From NCBI GenBank assembly GCA_964572155.1, contig CAZNDZ010000001.1:143300-207299 (forward strand): DNA of 64,000 nucleotides. The letters run 5' to 3'. Under the pieces are notes generated by a model. That model was given only the letters and a program-made list of their open reading frames with translations. It was not told the DNA's origin and did no database searches. Both the position numbers and the translations under genes were made by a program. Origin of the DNA: an uncultured Planctomycetales bacterium. Lineage in GTDB: Bacteria > Omnitrophota > Gorgyraeia > Zapsychrales > Fredricksoniimonadaceae. How positions within the stretch are numbered: the first letter of the stretch is position 1; each line of letters begins with the position of its first letter. Positions 2,806 through 22,907 of this stretch are shown one piece after another.

Positions 2806-4413
2806 GTGTTCAACTCAAAAAAATCTACCCTGATTTGTTTTTTTCTACTCACTGTCCTGTGCGGCATTGTGATTCATTTACCCTATCACAATTTCCAAAG
2901 CTTTGTGTCGCAAGGTGATCATGGCCGTGATTTATACGCGGCGGCGGCTGTTTTACGTGGTGAGATGCCCTACAAAGATTTCTGGTGGGTGTATGGCCCC
3001 CTCATGCCGTATTATTACGGCTTATTCTTTAAAATCTTCGGCATTCATGTGCCTAGCATCTTGCTTGGTAAAATGATCCTCAATATCGGTGCTGGCTTAT
3101 GCATCTTTATGGCTGTCACCCGCTTCTTTTCCCCCATCGCAGGTTTTGTCGCTGGCCTTTGGTTTTTGGTGTATCACGCGGATTTCTTTTTTACCTATAA
3201 TCATGCTGGCGGCATCCTCTTACTCGTCGCTGCCATCTGGATGCATTGGTCTTACATTAAAACACAGCAATTTAAATATGCGGCATTGTCCTTGCTCATC
3301 GTTGGCGCCTTAGGTCTTGTTAAGATCAACTTTGCTATCACAACGCTTATCATGGGTATTTTAACAATCCTGATTACCCGCCGCCTTAATAACAAAAGCA
3401 TTGATACAGGTGAAAAAACATTCTACGCGCTTTCTATATTAGGGTTGCCGTTATTTTGGTTTGGGATTTATAGCATTTTTGTCCAAGGACTCACCATCAA
3501 TGAAATTCGCCAATGCTTACCTTACTTAGGTGGGGATGAACCTTACAATAATTTAGGGCCCCTGCAAACTATCCCGCAATTGATTACGATCATCCTTAAT
3601 AATATCCGCTCAACATGGATTAGTTTTGGGCTTTGTGTGTTGATATTGTTATCCACTATGAAAACATTGCTCGACTTAACAAAATCCAAAGACAAAACCC
3701 TAATGCTCATCATCGGTTACGCACTTTTGTTCTACGCGTTTAACTTGCATGAGTTTATTAAAAGCGGTGTGTTTTATCGGATGTTTTGGTCTCAACCATT
3801 CACCGTCCTTTTAACCTTTATCATGATTGCATCCGCCATCCAAAGCCTTGCCAAGCCCATCCGATTTATCGTGTGGTCTGTATTGTGTGTCATTGCCGCC
3901 ACCTCCGCGTGGCAAACAACAACATTTATCAATTCATATAAAACACCCGCGCATTATTTAGGCAGTAGCCGCGGCCAAGTTTACATCACCAACGACAGCA
4001 ATTGGCTGCAAACGGTGGTACTCACAACCAAGCAATTAAACATCAATTTTAAGAAGGACGAACTATTCTTAGCCTTACCGTATGATTGCCTCTATTACTA
4101 CTTAACCGATAAGAAAACACCGACGCGCCAATTAATCTTTTTTGACCATATTAAAATACCTTTGGAACAAGAAGGCCGCATCATTCAAAGCCTTGAACAA
4201 CAAAAAATTGCAGGTGTATTACTATCAAGCAGACATTCAGCAAAAGAACCTGGGCTTGGCACCATGGGCGTTACCTATTGCCCGATGATGGCGCAATACA
4301 TCAACACCAACTTCACGCCTTACGCCAAAATTGGTGACTGGATTAATGAACCTGGTTGGGCGTGGAATCATGGCACCTATATTTTCAAACGCAAAGAAGT
4401 CCCTCATGAATAA
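2806..4413 (+). CDS. polytopic membrane protein, paralog A of a tandem pair (putative GT-C glycosyltransferase-like)
   Basis: 535 aa; N-terminal TM then conserved QGDHGRDLY..LRGEMPYKDFWWVYGPLMPYY; C-terminal block LALPYDCLYYYLTDKKTPTRQLIFFDHIKI shared with the next gene. Confidence 0.6.
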   Translation: MFNSKKSTLICFFLLTVLCGIVIHLPYHNFQSFVSQGDHGRDLYAAAAVLRGEMPYKDFWWVYGPLMPYYYGLFFKIFGIHVPSILLGKMILNIGAGLCIFMAVTRFFSPIAGFVAGLWFLVYHADFFFTYNHAGGILLLVAAIWMHWSYIKTQQFKYAALSLLIVGALGLVKINFAITTLIMGILTILITRRLNNKSIDTGEKTFYALSILGLPLFWFGIYSIFVQGLTINEIRQCLPYLGGDEPYNNLGPLQTIPQLITIILNNIRSTWISFGLCVLILLSTMKTLLDLTKSKDKTLMLIIGYALLFYAFNLHEFIKSGVFYRMFWSQPFTVLLTFIMIASAIQSLAKPIRFIVWSVLCVIAATSAWQTTTFINSYKTPAHYLGSSRGQVYITNDSNWLQTVVLTTKQLNINFKKDELFLALPYDCLYYYLTDKKTPTRQLIFFDHIKIPLEQEGRIIQSLEQQKIAGVLLSSRHSAKEPGLGTMGVTYCPMMAQYINTNFTPYAKIGDWINEPGWAWNHGTYIFKRKEVPHE

Positions 4414-5971
4414 AAATAAAATCTTTCTGATTCTGATCATCGCCGTAGTGTTTTTGATGGGTATTTATAAACTAAATTATTACCCGCAACTCTCCCAAGG
4501 TGATCATGGACGAGATTTATATTCTGCTCAAGCTGCGTTGCGTGGCGAACTGCCTTACAAAGATTATTGGTGGGTCTATGGGCCTATCATGCCCTATTAT
4601 TTTGCTGTATTTTATAAGATTGCAGGATCAAGCATCGTCGGATTTCTACTTGGAGACCTTGTATTAAAAACAGCGGCGGCTGCCTTTTTTTATTTAGCCT
4701 GCGCACAATTTATCCCTGCGTTTGTTGCTTTTATCGGCGCTATTTGGTTTGCTCAATCTCAACCCGATTTCTTTTTTACTTTTAATCACGCGGGCGGCAT
4801 AACAACGGAATTATTTATCCTCTTCTGCCTTTTTGCCTTTATTAAAAACCGTACGCCCAAGTATTTATGGATGTGTTTGCCTGCCATCTTGATTTATTGC
4901 TGCATTAAAATCAATTTTGGCCTAGCGGCATTTGTCGTCGTGCTGTTAACAGCCGCTTGTTGCAAATTCAAAGAGAAGAAATTCTATATCGCAAGCGCGA
5001 TAACGATCGGTCTTGTGGCGTTGATCTATGGACTCTTATTACAGGGGCTTAGCATCGAAGAAATTCGCCAATGCCATCCCTATTTTGGCGATGACCAGCC
5101 TCATCATTTTCCGCCCAGCATGACAATTCCTTATTATTTCATGCAACACTGGCTAACCTTCGTGCATGGCCCGATCAATATGATCATGGGCCTTATCTTG
5201 CACAGCGCAACATTGATTGTCATCGTGCGTGTACTGCTTAAAAAAATCGAACCCAAGGATCAACAGCTGCTTTTTTCAGCTCTTGGCCTTTTAGCTGTGT
5301 TCTTTATTATTAATTTTCATGAATTCGTCGTCAGCGGCGTGTGGTATCGCACCTATTGGTCTTTGCCGTTTTTATTTGTGTTTCATTTCTTGATGATGTG
5401 GCAGGCATTTCGTATTTTCCCAGCCTTGGTGCGCGGGATCATCTGGGCGGCATTTGGAAGTTTGTTTGTCTTAAATATCTTAGCGGGCTTCTTTACAACA
5501 CAATCACAAAAGATCCCACCACGATTATTAACCTCCGTGCACGGTCAAATATATTTAGGCAATGAAATGGAATGGACACAGACCGTCAACACCGTCACAG
5601 ACTACTTAAATAAAAACCTTAAAAAGGACGAGACATTTTTTGCCCTGCCCTACGATGACATTTATTATTATTTAACAAACAAAAAAAGCCCGTCTAGGAT
5701 GCTCATCTTCTTTGATCACATTAAAATATTACCTGCGCAAGAAGTTGCCATCATCAAAGAATTAGAACAAAACAACGTGGCCTATGTGCTCATGTCGAAC
5801 CGCATCGCCTCAAGCGAACGTGGTCTTGGGATATTCGGAAAAACCTACTGTCCTTTAATTGCCGCCTACATCAATCAAAAATTCACACCTGTCGCACGAC
5901 AAGGCGGTGATTGGCAAAAAGAACCTGGTTGGGGTAATAATCACGGGGTTTTGATTTTAAAGCGAAGGTAA
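4406..5971 (+). CDS. polytopic membrane protein, paralog B of the tandem pair
   Basis: ATG at 4406 overlaps the upstream stop (ATGAATAA); the protein from MNKNKIFLILII shares QGDHGRDLY..LRGELPYKDYWWVYGPIMPYY and LPYDDIYYYLTNKKSPSRMLIFFDHIKI with paralog A; the ORF-track start at 4331 lies inside the upstream gene. Confidence 0.6.
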   Translation: MNKNKIFLILIIAVVFLMGIYKLNYYPQLSQGDHGRDLYSAQAALRGELPYKDYWWVYGPIMPYYFAVFYKIAGSSIVGFLLGDLVLKTAAAAFFYLACAQFIPAFVAFIGAIWFAQSQPDFFFTFNHAGGITTELFILFCLFAFIKNRTPKYLWMCLPAILIYCCIKINFGLAAFVVVLLTAACCKFKEKKFYIASAITIGLVALIYGLLLQGLSIEEIRQCHPYFGDDQPHHFPPSMTIPYYFMQHWLTFVHGPINMIMGLILHSATLIVIVRVLLKKIEPKDQQLLFSALGLLAVFFIINFHEFVVSGVWYRTYWSLPFLFVFHFLMMWQAFRIFPALVRGIIWAAFGSLFVLNILAGFFTTQSQKIPPRLLTSVHGQIYLGNEMEWTQTVNTVTDYLNKNLKKDETFFALPYDDIYYYLTNKKSPSRMLIFFDHIKILPAQEVAIIKELEQNNVAYVLMSNRIASSERGLGIFGKTYCPLIAAYINQKFTPVARQGGDWQKEPGWGNNHGVLILKRR

Positions 5972-13416: not shown

Positions 13417-14920
<1,504 letters not shown>

Positions 14921-14978
14921 GAAACGTTAATCGAATTACAAAACTATAACATCCTTTCTTAAAATGCGCAAGTACCCC

Positions 14979-15006
14979 TTGCCTTATTGTGATTATGTTT
15001 TATACT
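14979..15006 (+). promoter_or_regulatory. sigma70-like promoter TTGCCT-16nt-TATACT placed for a leaderless transcript
   Basis: the -10 hexamer ends 6 nt before the ATG at 15013 and no SD precedes it, consistent with leaderless initiation. Confidence 0.3.
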
Positions 15007-15012
15007 TTAACT

Positions 15013-16254
15013 ATGAGACCACGTATCCTAATAGGACTACTTGCAGCAACCACCATTCCTCTCATTGCCTACGCCGGCACCTTAACCATGACTACCTATT
15101 ACCCAGCACCAACCGGTAATTACGACGTCCTAAACGCCAGCTCAATCGGCATCGGCACGGTCACAACCCGAGACAGACTAACTGTCGCTGGCTCTGGAAC
15201 TGGATATGCAGTAATCGGAGGATTAACCGGTTGTGGTTCAAATGTTACTGGTATTCAATTGAATGGCTCAGCGCTTACCTGTAATGACCATAATATGTCT
15301 ATGAATGGCAATAACCTAAGAATAAATAGGCCCAGTACTGGCACCATTATATTTAGACATGATAACAGCACTCAAATGACGCTCGATGCTACTGGAAACC
15401 TCGGTATTGGCATAACACCAACTAGTTTATTGCATGTAAACGGCGCTTCCAACCTTGTTGGTGCTGTAACCATGGGAAGCACTGCCAGTATTGCTGGAGC
15501 TGCAACCATCACAGGAGCTACCACACTTAATGGGGTTACAACGCTCAACAATAGCACAACTGCCAATAGTAATTTTACTGTTGCAGCTGGTGGTTTATCC
15601 GTTAATGCAGGTGTTGCAACCACCTTAAGCGGACCAGCCACCGCAGCAAATGGATTAACCGTTAGCGCAGGTGGTCTTGCAGTTACAGGTGCTACATCAA
15701 TAACTGGCAATACAACCATCACAGGCAATGCAAGCGTGTCTGGCACAACCACCCATACAGGTGCAACAACCTTAACAGGCGGCATTAACGGTGGCGCTAC
15801 TGTTAATACTGGAAATCTTACAGTAACTGTAGGTAATCTTGCTGTTAACGCTGGCAACCTCACGGTTGGCGGCACATCAACATTTACAGGCGCTTCTACA
15901 ATAAATAACAGTCTAACGGTAACTGGCAATGTGTCTGCCAATGGATTTTTCTATTCTTCTGACAAGCGCTTAAAAACACAGGTACAACCCATTTTCGACC
16001 CAATAGAAAAAGTAAAACAGCTCAAAGGTGTCACGTTCCGTTGGAAAAAAGATCGCAAGAAGTCTGTCGGTATCATTGCCCAAGATGTTGAAAAAGTATT
16101 TCCCGAACTTGTCCATACTGACAAACAAGGCATGAAATCTGTCGCATACCCTAACCTCATTGGCCTCTTGATTGAGACCACCAAAGAACAACAAAAACAA
16201 ATCGATGCGCTCAAAAAAGAAGTTGCCCAATTGCGCAAAGAGATAAAAAGGTGA
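15013..16254 (+). CDS. secreted phage tail-fibre-like protein with C-terminal intramolecular-chaperone (peptidase S74) domain
   Basis: signal peptide MRPRILIGLLAATTIPLIAYA|G; long G/T/N/A-rich beta-helix-type repeats (TGATTLTGGINGGATVNTGNLTV...); C-terminal SDKRLK autocleavage motif followed by VGIIAQDVEKVFPELV and a coiled coil. Confidence 0.75.
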   Translation: MRPRILIGLLAATTIPLIAYAGTLTMTTYYPAPTGNYDVLNASSIGIGTVTTRDRLTVAGSGTGYAVIGGLTGCGSNVTGIQLNGSALTCNDHNMSMNGNNLRINRPSTGTIIFRHDNSTQMTLDATGNLGIGITPTSLLHVNGASNLVGAVTMGSTASIAGAATITGATTLNGVTTLNNSTTANSNFTVAAGGLSVNAGVATTLSGPATAANGLTVSAGGLAVTGATSITGNTTITGNASVSGTTTHTGATTLTGGINGGATVNTGNLTVTVGNLAVNAGNLTVGGTSTFTGASTINNSLTVTGNVSANGFFYSSDKRLKTQVQPIFDPIEKVKQLKGVTFRWKKDRKKSVGIIAQDVEKVFPELVHTDKQGMKSVAYPNLIGLLIETTKEQQKQIDALKKEVAQLRKEIKR

Positions 16255-16258
16255 CGAT

Positions 16259-16284
16259 AAAAAGGTGACAGTCACCTTTTTATG
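16259..16284. repeat. REP-like palindrome AAAAAGGTGACAGTCACCTTTTTAT, also an intrinsic-terminator hairpin for the tail-fibre-like gene
   Basis: perfect palindrome with U-run on the plus strand; a partial direct copy AGATAAAAAGGTGAC sits immediately upstream at 16241-16255; inverted partner at 17054-17082. Confidence 0.6.
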
Positions 16285-16290
16285 TTAAAT

Positions 16291-16319
16291 TTGACAAATT
16301 TGCTTTTGTCTTTTAATAT
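16291..16319 (+). promoter_or_regulatory. sigma70-like promoter TTGACA-17nt-TAATAT upstream of the RAYT gene
   Basis: consensus -35 and a good -10 with 17-nt spacer; AGGA SD before the ATG at 16399. Confidence 0.35.
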
Positions 16320-16398
16320 TTAAATGCGCTTTAAATCCCCCTTTAAAGTGCTTTATTTTTAAATCTAAACTCCCCCTTACAAAATCCTAGGAATAAAC

Positions 16399-17058
16399 AT
16401 GCCACGTCGCGCCCGCATTGTTCTACCCGGTTACTTTCATCACGTAACTCAACGAGGAAACTATCAGCAAAATGTATTCTTAAGCAATCAAGATCGAGCA
16501 GTATATTTAAAATACATTGATGAAAATGCTCAAAAATATGGTCTGAACATTTATGCTTTTTGCTTAATGGACAATCACGTACACTTTATTGTGACCCCTA
16601 TAAGCAAAGATTCACTTTCAAATACTTTTCGTGTCGCTCATCAACGATATGCTTTGTATGTAAATAAAAGAGGTCGACAATTGGGGCACCTATGGCAATC
16701 TCGTTTCTACTCCTGCATCTTATTAGGAGAACACATTGCCCGCGCTATTCGTTACGTAGAACGTAACCCAGTACGAGCAGGATTGGTAAATAAACCGGAA
16801 GATTTCTTATGGTCTAGCGCTCGATCACATTTTGGGAAAAGATATAGAATAATATCCTTAACTGATATCCCAAAATATATTACTGTTGAATCTTGGAAGA
16901 AATACCTTACAAGTGAAGATGCGCCTGAAGATTTGCAAGAAATACGAGCTAATACACTTCAAGGAAAAGCTTTTGGAAATGTAAACTCCATTGAAATTCT
17001 AGAGAAACAAATTGATAGAAATTTAGTGTTTTGCCCTCAAGGAAGACCTAAAAGATAA
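16399..17058 (+). CDS. REP-associated tyrosine transposase (RAYT, IS200/IS605-like Y1 HUH transposase)
   Basis: 219 aa; MPRRARIVLPGYFHHVTQRGN, HUH motif NHVHFIV, catalytic-Tyr block RYVERNPVRAGLV. Confidence 0.8.
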   Translation: MPRRARIVLPGYFHHVTQRGNYQQNVFLSNQDRAVYLKYIDENAQKYGLNIYAFCLMDNHVHFIVTPISKDSLSNTFRVAHQRYALYVNKRGRQLGHLWQSRFYSCILLGEHIARAIRYVERNPVRAGLVNKPEDFLWSSARSHFGKRYRIISLTDIPKYITVESWKKYLTSEDAPEDLQEIRANTLQGKAFGNVNSIEILEKQIDRNLVFCPQGRPKR

Positions 17059-17082
17059 AAAGGTGACTGTCACCTTTTTACC
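17054..17082. repeat. REP-like palindrome GATAAAAAGGTGACTGTCACCTTTTTACC, inverted partner of 16259-16284
   Basis: identical to the upstream palindrome except the central base (A vs T), as expected for an inverted copy; overlaps the RAYT stop codon. Confidence 0.6.
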
Positions 17083-17737
17083 TTTTTATTAAGACGACAA
17101 ACTCACCCTTGGGTGGGTGTTTTAAAAAATGTGCCTGCAGTTCTTTGGCGGTCCCCTGCTTGACCTCTTCAAACATCTTGGTTAGTTCCCGAGCGCAAAC
17201 GACCGTGGCATCTTCTAAAACTTCTTCAATGTCTTTCAAGGTCTTTTCAATGCGGTGCGGCGATTCATAAAAGATGGCGGTGCCGTCAAAATCTTTGAGC
17301 GTTTCCAATACCTTGCGCCTTGCGCCTGATTTAACGGGCAAAAACCCTTCAAAAATAAAACGATGCGCTGGTAAACCCGACGCTGTTAGGGCCATAATGG
17401 CAGCACATGGGCCTGGGAGTACTTCGATCTTAATGCCTTCGGCGAGCGCAGCTTGAATCAACGGATAGCCTGGGTCACTAATGCCTGGTGTTCCTGCGTC
17501 GCTGACCAACGCCACCTTCTTACCCTCTTTTAACTTTGCGATGATGTCTTTGGTCTTAATGGCTTGATTGTGTTCGAAAAAACTAATCAAGGGTTTTGAA
17601 ATTTGATACGCATCGAGCAAGATTTTAGTGTGGCGCGTATCTTCTGCGGCAATATAATCCACGTCTTTTAATGTTTCTAAAGCACGCAGCGTAATGTCTT
17701 TTAAATTTCCGATGGGGGTTGCAACGATATACAGCAT
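17078..17737 (-). CDS. rsmI: 16S rRNA (cytidine1402-2'-O)-methyltransferase
   Basis: 219 aa; MLYIVATPIGNLKDITLRALETL..AAEDTRHT signature. Confidence 0.9.
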   Translation of the reverse strand: MLYIVATPIGNLKDITLRALETLKDVDYIAAEDTRHTKILLDAYQISKPLISFFEHNQAIKTKDIIAKLKEGKKVALVSDAGTPGISDPGYPLIQAALAEGIKIEVLPGPCAAIMALTASGLPAHRFIFEGFLPVKSGARRKVLETLKDFDGTAIFYESPHRIEKTLKDIEEVLEDATVVCARELTKMFEEVKQGTAKELQAHFLKHPPKGEFVVLIKR

Positions 17738-21559: not shown

Positions 21560-22485
21560 ACCACGCTCTTGGCCGCCGCCTCGCGGACACATTCAATGGC
21601 TTGAGCTATGCCAGGGGTGGGCATTTGCATGCTCCCTTGGGCTAATCCAATATGCCAACCTTGTGGAATTTTTACAATCGATATGCGCACATGTTGCACC
21701 AAATCTTCGTCATGAACCAAAACGTAGACGAGACCGCGCTGCTGCGCAGCATCAAATAAATAATCTTTGAACACTACCGCACATGTGCCGTTTGAAAAAT
21801 CGGTCATGCTAAAATGGTCGGGGTCAAATTGAGGTAATGTATGGTGTTGAATAGCTGTGCCTTCTTTTAATGGGATATCTGCATGTTCTTGTTTCGTCAA
21901 TAACAGCTCATAAAAATCTTGTTGCCCGCCCTCTTGCCACTTGCGCTCAAACTTGGTGCCGTAATTTGCGCCGATGACGGTTTCTTTTAAATCAAAACCA
22001 CTGCCTGGCACTTGCTCTTTGATCCATTGGGCATACGCTTTAAAATCCGTCACAACTTTTAAAGCCCCGCCATCTTGTAAACGGCTATTGGCTAGACGTA
22101 AAAAATCCGTTTGCAGCAACCGGTGTTTGATATCGGACTTCTTGGGCCACGGTGCTGGAAACAGACAATGAATAAACGCGAGACTTTTAGGTGTAAATAA
22201 ATACTCTAATGCTGGGCGCACATCTACGCGCATCACCCGCGCATTACAATGCTCAACACGACTTAACTTGCGCAAGCTGCGCGCCACACGTTCGCAATAA
22301 ACTTCAAAACCCACATAATTGATATTTGGATTTTCCGTCGCTATGCGGGCTAAATATTCGCCATTGCCAATGCCGATTTCAACTTCTAGAGCTTTGTCAT
22401 TTCCAAAAACTTTTTTCCAATCAACGGGCCGCTCTTGGGACGCATGGTCCAAAAAAGGTTTTAGGGAAACATACAACGGTTTCAC
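21553..22485 (-). CDS. trmB: tRNA (guanine-N7)-methyltransferase with C-terminal extension
   Basis: 310 aa; SAM-MTase block LEVEIGIGNGEYL..NYVGFEV plus TrmB-type downstream blocks. Confidence 0.75.
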   Translation of the reverse strand: MKPLYVSLKPFLDHASQERPVDWKKVFGNDKALEVEIGIGNGEYLARIATENPNINYVGFEVYCERVARSLRKLSRVEHCNARVMRVDVRPALEYLFTPKSLAFIHCLFPAPWPKKSDIKHRLLQTDFLRLANSRLQDGGALKVVTDFKAYAQWIKEQVPGSGFDLKETVIGANYGTKFERKWQEGGQQDFYELLLTKQEHADIPLKEGTAIQHHTLPQFDPDHFSMTDFSNGTCAVVFKDYLFDAAQQRGLVYVLVHDEDLVQHVRISIVKIPQGWHIGLAQGSMQMPTPGIAQAIECVREAAAKSVVC

Positions 22486-22907
22486 TTTAACTTATCCCAA
22501 CCCTTTGCGGTCAATACGCCTTGGCAGAATTTTAATGGCATTAATTCAGCATCACTAACTACACCGTCGGGAATAACCACAGACGTGACATAATATTCAA
22601 CGGTGCATTTACCCTTAGCTTCTTCTACGTCGCTTGTTTTATAAGGATTATTTAATGTGACAGGTGCAGGTGAACCTTGTGCAGCATTTAAATTGGTATA
22701 ACCAATGATAATCGTCTGTCCCATGATGTCATGAACTTGTTGTAACGTCATGCCAACTGTGACCTTTTTTAATGCGCTTTGATTTAGCTCATAGGTGCCT
22801 GTTGTCGCTGCGGCAACAGGATTGTAGCCTTCATTCATCGCACAACCAGAGGTCAAGATACACAAAAATGATATTAAAATAAACTTTAACATGTGGCTAT
22901 TATACAT
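22482..22907 (-). CDS. lipoprotein, BamE/SmpA-OmlA-like
   Basis: 141 aa; lipobox LTSG|C; KVTVGMTLQQVHDIMGQ resembles the BamE motif. Confidence 0.45.
   Translation of the reverse strand: MYNSHMLKFILISFLCILTSGCAMNEGYNPVAAATTGTYELNQSALKKVTVGMTLQQVHDIMGQTIIIGYTNLNAAQGSPAPVTLNNPYKTSDVEEAKGKCTVEYYVTSVVIPDGVVSDAELMPLKFCQGVLTAKGWDKLK

Follow-up and report, generated by a model that had tools for sequence, protein, structure and literature searches.

The 64-kb stretch of an Omnitrophota contig analysed here (CAZNDZ010000001.1, positions 143,300 to 207,299 of the forward strand; hereafter the window) contains a cassette of about 0.8 kb, in which the gene for a Y1 transposase similar to those associated with repetitive extragenic palindromes (REPs), known as RAYTs, is bracketed by two inverted hairpin repeats. 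The cassette separates the stop codons of two convergent chromosomal genes, encoding a tail-fibre-like protein and the 16S rRNA methyltransferase RsmI, and each of the three genes now has its stop codon in repeat-derived DNA. Taken together, the cassette and the repeat-derived codons of its neighbours probably constitute a TIRtron, i.e., a single-copy TIRYT gene (Group 1 RAYT, similar to subclass 2.1) accompanied by its cognate repeats. The cassette is best filed as a new example of this class, which is already described but little studied; the example comes from a new phylum and has unusually perfect hairpin ends. The block between the two neighbouring stop codons measures 823 nt (16255-17077), and the gene, the repeats and their outer partial copies are arranged as follows (positions are those of the window).

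16242-16255, plus strand: outer left partial copy, GATAAAAAGGTGAC, first unit of a 14-nt tandem duplication, which holds the TGA (16252-16254) of the fibre-like gene
16256-16283, plus strand: left (upstream) terminal inverted repeat, with a 27-nt perfect palindrome, ATAAAAAGGTGAC-A-GTCACCTTTTTAT, at 16257-16283 (arms of 13 nt)
16399-17058, plus strand: transposase gene, encoding a 219-aa Y1 HUH tyrosine transposase, whose TAA (17056-17058) lies inside the left arm of the right palindrome
17055-17080, plus strand: right (downstream) terminal inverted repeat, with a 25-nt palindrome, TAAAAAGGTGAC-T-GTCACCTTTTTA, at 17056-17080
17080-17089, plus strand: outer right partial copy, ACCTTTTTAT, the minus strand of which encodes the last residues of RsmI, I-K-R

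A first-pass annotation of the window, made from the letters alone, had proposed that two palindromes differing only at the central base flank the RAYT gene. The sequence confirms it, with A at the centre on the left and T on the right; the 26 nt of 17055-17080, when reverse-complemented, are identical to 16258-16283. The palindrome can be generalised as (A)nGGTGACNGTCACC(T)n, or A(4-6)GGTGACNGTCACCT(4-6), and on the sense strand the left repeat carries the core GGTGACAG, which agrees with the consensus GGGGWSAS at 7 of 8 positions. The left end of the cassette reads ...AAA GAG ATA AAA AGG TGA C, then GATAAAAAGGTGAC A GTCACCTTTTTAT; here the 14-nt GATAAAAAGGTGAC occurs twice in direct succession, at 16242-16255 and, forming the left arm of the left palindrome, at 16256-16269, and the half-copy described earlier as AGATAAAAAGGTGAC at 16241-16255 is indeed present. 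The right end reads ...AAA AGA TAA AAAGGTGAC T GTCACCTTTTT ACCTTTTTAT and carries an 8-nt tandem duplication with the unit ACCTTTTT (17072-17079 and 17080-17087). The two ends of the cassette mirror each other in this respect, with an outer tandem duplication of 14 nt on the left and 8 nt on the right, a symmetry that the first-pass annotation had missed.

The search of the 64 kb for further copies was made with a 13-mer, GGTGACNGTCACC, allowing one mismatch and in comparison with 100 shuffled sequences, and with a 17-mer, allowing three. Both searches returned the two palindromes only, in agreement with what had been noted before; none of the 100 shuffles gave two or more sites for the 13-mer, for which about 0.02 are expected by chance, and the expectation over both searches is about 0.02-0.08. 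It has to be considered that a single open reading frame on the minus strand (23676-63926; a giant gene of 13,416 aa with a GTG start) takes up about 63% of the window, so that a window-wide search samples little intergenic DNA. As RNA, the hairpins fold with -15 to -20 kcal/mol (z -3.5 to -5.7), and z ranges from -3.5 to -6.6 when RNA and DNA folds are taken together, the left repeat having a z of about -5. The GC content of the cassette is 35-40%, vs 43-49% in the flanks.

The product of the gene matches the Pfam Y1_Tnp model with 52.1 bits (cut-off 23), and the NCBIfam RAYT model NF047646 with 78.1 bits, just under its curated cut-off of 80. The latter model matches all 32 family members of the protein alignment (best E-value 9.9e-23), which indicates that the family as a whole sits near this cut-off. 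The first-pass annotation had suggested checking the HUH and tyrosine residues as well as a possible affinity to classical IS200 TnpA. The first check was positive, since H60-V61-H62 and Y119 (in RYVERNPVRA) are invariant in the 32 homologues, as are W99-Q100-R102 and S139-S140. The second spoke against an IS200-like enzyme, because the IS200 model NF033573 gives 20.6 bits vs a cut-off of 55, and the sequence RYVERNP has the Class 2 signature Y---NP, not Y---Q. In a profile search of the PDB with the 32-member alignment, the E. coli TnpA-REP structure (4ER8) ranks first, ahead of the IS200-type enzymes, while the same search with the single transposase sequence gave no match. The AlphaFold model (predicted local distance difference test score, pLDDT, 89.9) also has its best fold match in 4ER8 (Foldseek; E 3.9e-10, template modelling score, TM, 0.74), followed by TnpA of IS608 and ISDra2 (E 1e-6 to 1e-5). 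Residues ~140-219 are confidently predicted to form a three-helix C-terminal extension of about 80 conserved residues, ending in GRPK(K/R), which is GRPKR in the window. Full-length relatives, of about 220 aa, number more than 7,900 in a database search.

The class to which this protein appears to belong is known from genome surveys. In Di Nocera 2013 (PMC3733652), RAYT-like genes flanked by terminal inverted repeats without GTAG REPs are named TIRtrons/TIRYTs; GGGGWSAS is common to their repeats, which are found at similar distances from the gene and sometimes overlap its 3' end, and which are sometimes self-complementary and moderately repeated in some genomes. According to Quentin 2018 (PMC6006769), most TIRYTs correspond to TnpAY1 subclass 2.1, equivalent to Group 1 of Bertels, for which no REPs were found; Table 1 of that paper gives for the subclass the motifs NHVH, W[EQ], YIELNP/Y[IV]HLNP and a tail motif SS, with a median length of 238 aa. 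In Bertels 2017 (PMC5581495), the Group 1 RAYTs are the largest, most widely distributed and most IS-like (insertion sequence-like) of the RAYT groups. Compared with these descriptions, the window shares with TIRtrons a Y1 HUH/Tyr protein that exceeds E. coli TnpA-REP in length and has NHVH, WQ, YVERNP and WSS; inverted repeats at a fixed distance, with a core close to GGGGWSAS (7 of 8 positions), of which the downstream one overlaps the 3' end of the gene; and a low copy number together with a wide taxonomic distribution. The motifs of Table 1 are matched with R in place of L in YVERNP, and the length is 219 aa vs a median of 238. Unlike the TIRtrons described there, the repeat of the window is a perfect palindrome of 25-27 nt, and the host phylum is Omnitrophota.

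The first-pass annotation had called the locus a REP/RAYT arrangement, and this holds as far as a Y1 enzyme of the RAYT branch and inverted hairpins are concerned. It probably does not extend to a classical REPtron, in which a domesticated RAYT of the Group 2/3 type would maintain a genome-wide REP/REPIN population that includes the flanking palindromes. Such a system would agree with flanking repeats that are true hairpins in inverted orientation, with the 78.1 bits on the RAYT model and TnpA-REP as the best PDB match, and with a gene that resembles a housekeeping gene in its single copy, its synteny and the purifying selection on it. The resemblance to the E. coli REPtron goes further, in that HUH, WQ.R and Y..NP align with 4ER8 and that the gene there is likewise single copy, chromosomal and flanked by inverted hairpin repeats. 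By contrast with E. coli, no GTAG guide tetranucleotide is found in the window, where neither GTAG nor GTGG adjoins the foot of the hairpins, the feet being A/T runs (GATAAAAAGG... and ...CCTTTTTAT). Furthermore, no dispersed REP population is found in the 64 kb, and the protein of the window carries the ~80-residue helical extension and scores under the NF047646 cut-off. The palindrome is equally missing, apart from the orthologous pair, from the 67.6 kb of relatives' loci, and the protein motifs match the TIRYT class, as does, at 7 of 8 positions, the core of the repeat.

A further observation in favour of a REPtron comes from other genomes. Among the matches listed for the species-representative genomes, the 19-mer AAAGGTGACNGTCACCTTT occurs at more than 115 loci, vs about 17 expected (our own estimate); it is multi-copy in several of the Planctomycetota metagenome-assembled genomes (MAGs) among these matches, one of which, a Pirellulales MAG, has at least 15 loci. 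In Planctomycetota MAGs it often forms inverted doublets exactly 50 bp apart, AAAGGTGAC(A/T)GTCACCTTT, around a second GC-rich hairpin and with first an A, then a T centre (L010:2511-2579, L021, L030, L063, L075, L078, L091 and L102, the L-numbers denoting compared loci). These doublets are a REPIN-like repeat family composed of the palindrome of the window. Among the same matches, ten Omnitrophota MAGs have the 19-mer as a single copy, mostly intergenic. Weighing these points, we regard a classical REPtron as unlikely, and a TIRtron as the better description of the locus.

RsmI homologues place the source of the window in Candidatus Omnitrophota. In four relatives, with RsmI 80-92% identical, the gene order is glmS-rsmI-> <-fibre-pyrR-pyrB-pyrC, and both cassette and palindrome are missing. 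At the empty sites (L198, 984/985; L200-L202; L203, 5663/5664) the stop codons of rsmI and of the S74 fibre-like gene abut with 0 nt between them, in the forms TAA/TTA, TGA/TCA and TAA/CTA. The abutting stops identify the 823 nt of the window as an insertion, placed exactly at the stop-to-stop junction of the two convergent host genes. In a fifth relative, L199, the same junction is occupied by a YoeB/YefM toxin-antitoxin pair (4127-4629), and small mobile modules seem to have settled at this junction repeatedly. In L204 and L205 the cassette is found at the same site and with the same left junction, and the transposase, 73% identical in amino acids, is the nearest homologue of that of the window. 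Between the transposase genes of the window and L204, the proportion of nonsynonymous differences (pN) is 0.167 and that of synonymous differences (pS) 0.764, i.e., saturated, with pN/pS of about 0.2; the saturated pS and low pN mean that the gene has long resided at this site and evolves under purifying selection. At least two lineages of species rank have kept the cassette there under such selection.

The L204 repeats are imperfect palindromes, with the central bases G/C where the window has A/T, and they are identical in the inverted register only. Since they match in this register alone and the central base co-varies, the two copies are inverted with respect to each other and evolve in concert, which bears out the first-pass reading of the pair as inverted copies.

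These observations bear on the possibility that the 0.8-kb unit is an active autonomous insertion sequence (IS) that recently jumped into the junction and is still mobile as a whole. Its lower GC content than the flanks and its absence from the nearest relative L198 and from others would suit such an element, as would the occurrence of family members on plasmids, in up to three copies in one record, the YoeB/YefM module at the same junction and, going by Bertels 2017 (PMC5581495), the rank of Group 1 as the most IS-like RAYT group. Against it speak the identical site and left junction in a second lineage, from which the window has diverged to saturation at synonymous positions, the pN/pS of about 0.2 and the presence of one copy only in the window. 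In addition, the score on the IS200 model and the Y..NP motif in place of Y...Q set the enzyme apart from IS200, and the ends are inverted, whereas those of IS200/IS605 elements are direct. The enzymes of IS608 and ISDra2 do share with that of the window the Y1 HUH core fold and end hairpins as presumed recognition elements. The cassette is unlike those systems in lacking tnpB, in having a single-copy gene that is syntenic across species, and in having ends that are inverted copies of one sequence and not two differing subterminal hairpins on one strand. We regard an active IS as very unlikely.

The two genes that flank the cassette, and whose 3' ends are affected by it, are the following.

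14989-16254, plus strand: tail-fibre-like gene, whose product ends in a Peptidase_S74 chaperone domain (PF13884, 64 bits)
17078-17737, minus strand: rsmI, encoding the 16S rRNA C1402 2'-O-methyltransferase, 219 aa (TIGR00096, 272 bits)

The fibre-like gene is syntenic in L198-L203, which indicates a host gene and not part of a prophage. In the window both this gene and rsmI finish in the repeat-arm sequence ATAAAAAGGT. The last codons of the fibre-like gene, I-K-R and TGA, lie in the outer partial repeat, and the full left palindrome starts 3 nt later; the rsmI stop (17078-17080, minus strand) lies inside the right arm of the right palindrome, with its I-K-R codons in the outer partial copy. 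The right palindrome consequently holds two stops, that of the transposase gene (17056-17058) and that of the convergent rsmI (17078-17080), the latter overlap having gone unnoticed in the first-pass annotation. The same annotation had both plus-strand genes terminating inside the palindrome, which is true of the transposase gene but not of the fibre-like gene, whose stop falls in the outer half-copy. It had also given ...EIKR* and ...RPKR* a shared tail, and a common 15-mer does exist, but it is read in different frames, as ...ATA AAA AGG TGA in the fibre-like gene and as ...AGA TAA in the transposase gene.

Its suggestion that the element reshaped the 3' ends of its neighbours is supported by the cassette-free relatives, which end in ...INSK*/...AIKK* at their abutting stops. 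Relative to L198, the end of the fibre-like gene has changed from ATT AAA AAA TAA to ATA AAA AGG TGA, and that of rsmI from ...ATT AAT TCA AAA TAA to ...ATA AAA AGG TAA; because the ancestral ends were already A-rich, the proteins have changed little (KK to KR in the one, NSK to KR in the other). The L204 locus differs in detail. Its fibre-like gene ends in ...KDIKR*, with the TGA inside the full left repeat and without the 14-nt duplication (a 14-nt gap in the alignment), and its rsmI has a longer tail, ...NNDNAAGQ*, which ends 6 nt past the right repeat and is encoded by 23 nt that the window lacks. A truncation of rsmI by the insertion was considered and rejected, since the homologues of the clade have 217-225 aa and the 219 aa of the window are therefore normal.

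Beyond this locus, the layout of the repeats was compared over 80 metagenomic family loci (L118-L197), whose transposases are 35-55% identical to that of the window. A de novo search found a bracketing pair of inverted repeats in 67 of the roughly 72 loci with enough flank. Exact GGTGACNGTCACC is almost absent beside these 80 closest family genes; the repeats differ in sequence and share a G-rich core (GGGAC, GGTGAC), the cores of the relatives being AGGGACAG or GGGGACAG. The core is on the sense strand upstream at all 44 informative loci and in the opposite orientation at none. Over the 52 loci with an exact inverted repeat of at least 13 nt, the window included, the gap between the upstream repeat and the ATG has a median of 39.5 nt (about 116 nt in the window), TTGAC[AT] occurs within ~25 nt inside the upstream repeat at 25, and the stop codon lies inside the downstream repeat at 19 and within 6 nt of it at 20 more (39/52 in total). 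Direct partial copies of the outer arm are found just outside the repeats at 15 of the 52 loci (23 copies), vs 2 of 52 for an inner control. The half-copies of the window are thus a trait of the family and not an oddity of the locus, and in its whole layout, from the polarity of the core and the distances to the partial copies outside, the locus conforms to the family. That the repeats of the family are generally covarying hairpins was, by contrast, rejected, since perfect arms of at least 6 nt occur at 10 of the 52 loci only, among which the window, with 12, is the most self-complementary.

The palindrome itself recurs around more distant Y1 homologues. The same 13-mer brackets such genes in a Robertmurraya genome, a Treponema MAG, an unclassified MAG and an Omnitrophota MAG, and in a gammaproteobacterial MAG (L065; 5931-5943 and 6705-6717) a full-length family member is bracketed by the variant GGGGACNGTCCCC, GGGGAC(A/T)GTCCCC, both arms of which differ from those of the window's palindrome by a compensated T-to-G / A-to-C change. 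On the sense strand the centre is A upstream and T downstream, as in the window, at four of these five loci, the exception being the Omnitrophota locus L071. A full-text literature search for the 13-mer found no relevant paper.

The family is met in other settings too. In several metagenome contigs (L206, 3743-4385; L207; L209), a 60%-identical member is directly followed by genes for a PhdYeFM-like antitoxin and a PIN toxin. A 24-kb Pseudomonas aeruginosa record (L212; NZ_CP116719.1) has three members annotated as 'transposase' (14239-14931, 16538-17230 and 22170-22862), which alternate with short genes for toxin domains (EndoU, deaminase, glutamine deamidase and non-specific endonuclease), and looks like an orphan toxin cassette array.

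The comparison across loci also bears on a simpler view of the palindromes, as ordinary terminators or operators of the host that are older than the transposase gene and unrelated to it. Both are indeed terminator-like in shape (A-tract, stem and T-tract) and sit at the 3' ends of three genes, and similar solo palindromes are intergenic in other Omnitrophota MAGs. The relatives without the gene, however, are also without the palindromes; in 67 loci of many lineages the gene lies between inverted repeats whose core has the same polarity; and the two copies evolve in concert, with A/T centres here and G/C centres in L204. Already contradicted by these comparative data, an unrelated origin of the palindromes is hardly credible, and repeats that belong to the transposase gene, as in a TIRtron, remain the preferred reading. 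A terminator function within the TIRtron is a separate matter and a plausible one, in which the A5-stem-U5 hairpins, as putative intrinsic terminators working in both directions, would serve the fibre-like gene, the transposase gene and rsmI.

Between the left repeat and the transposase gene two further elements can be recognised.

16291-16319, plus strand: promoter-like site, TTGACA and TAATAT with a 17-nt spacer (10/12 match), starting 8 nt past the left repeat
16326-16378, plus strand: conserved leader, in which a C5 loop closes the hairpin GCGCTTTAAATCCCCCTTTAAAGTGC (16326-16351) and a second CTCCCCC motif follows at 16368-16378

The promoter-like box and its 17-nt spacing are kept in L204, and 16291-16319 is the predicted promoter of the transposase gene. 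The 116-nt leader is 78% identical to that of L204 despite saturated synonymous sites, which means that the leader is constrained too; its hairpin and motif may be a regulatory RNA or DNA element. The long leader element is also seen in the leaders of L204, L206, L118 and L135. A scan with Rfam returned only tRNAs at the gathering threshold, with no credible match in the cassette or its leader.

By analogy with IS608, ISDra2 and E. coli TnpA-REP, the enzyme would recognise the repeats as hairpins on single-stranded DNA, and it would nick and rejoin the DNA near the conserved G-rich core by means of Y119 and the HUH metal site. The repeat that adjoins the -35 box may, in addition, let the protein control its own promoter. 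The outer partial copies suggest an extension of this scheme. Their ends cluster at the core, 26 of 27 falling within -3 to +5 nt of its GAC, which suggests that the core might be the cleavage site. The outward copies would then be scars of nicking and rejoining by the enzyme, and a resident, vertically inherited TIRYT would repeatedly remodel its own borders. We put this forward tentatively and consider it rather unlikely. Neither the outer partial copies nor stop codons given to both neighbours are mentioned in the available excerpts of PMC3733652, PMC6006769 and PMC5581495.

Several points weigh against the interpretation as a TIRtron, or against parts of it. At the level of the class, the core of the repeat is one mismatch off GGGGWSAS (T where the consensus has G, at position 3), and the fit to subclass 2.1 comes from a comparison of motifs and not from the authors' hidden Markov models. 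In PMC6006769, subclass 2.1 is reported to have C-terminal helix-turn-helix (HTH)-like domains (Bac_DnaA_C, HTH_23 or HTH_28), unlike the C-terminal extension of the window, which has no detectable Pfam HTH domain; none of the three was matched at E <=1 in the 32 members. The single-copy status of the gene is that seen within the window, and a literature search on the TIRYT class returned two genome surveys that name it, with no biochemistry and nothing later. With regard to the repeats, most of those in the family are non-palindromic, and recognition as hairpins may therefore not be the general mode; terminator-like sites are not enriched in the region (7 vs 4.1 +/- 2.3 in shuffles), and the cassette-free relatives manage without a terminator hairpin at their abutting junction. 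As for the history, the cassette-free L198 is closer to the window in protein than L204, which has the cassette (94% vs 87% for RsmI and 75% vs 72% for the fibre-like protein), so that either a loss or a second gain must be assumed. The DNA identities to the window are nearly equal for L198 and L204, with synonymous sites saturated. These data are compatible both with a single gain that was later lost cleanly and with two independent gains at this site.

As a genome feature, a cassette of this kind is the expected kind of thing. The interest of the locus lies in what it offers for the class, as the TIRYT/Group 1 RAYTs are the largest and most widespread RAYT-like branch (>7,900 matches). The combination of an empty site in close relatives, an orthologous filled site and short perfect hairpins makes it a convenient substrate for testing cleavage by the enzyme. 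If the outward partial copies were scars of its activity, the element would have rewritten the last codons, the stop codons and the terminators of both host neighbours, and the copies would offer the first clue to how a large, uncharacterised branch of HUH enzymes works. Irrespective of this, the locus shows how, in a small genome, an element can take over the 3' ends, and the putative terminators, of convergent genes that are tightly packed.

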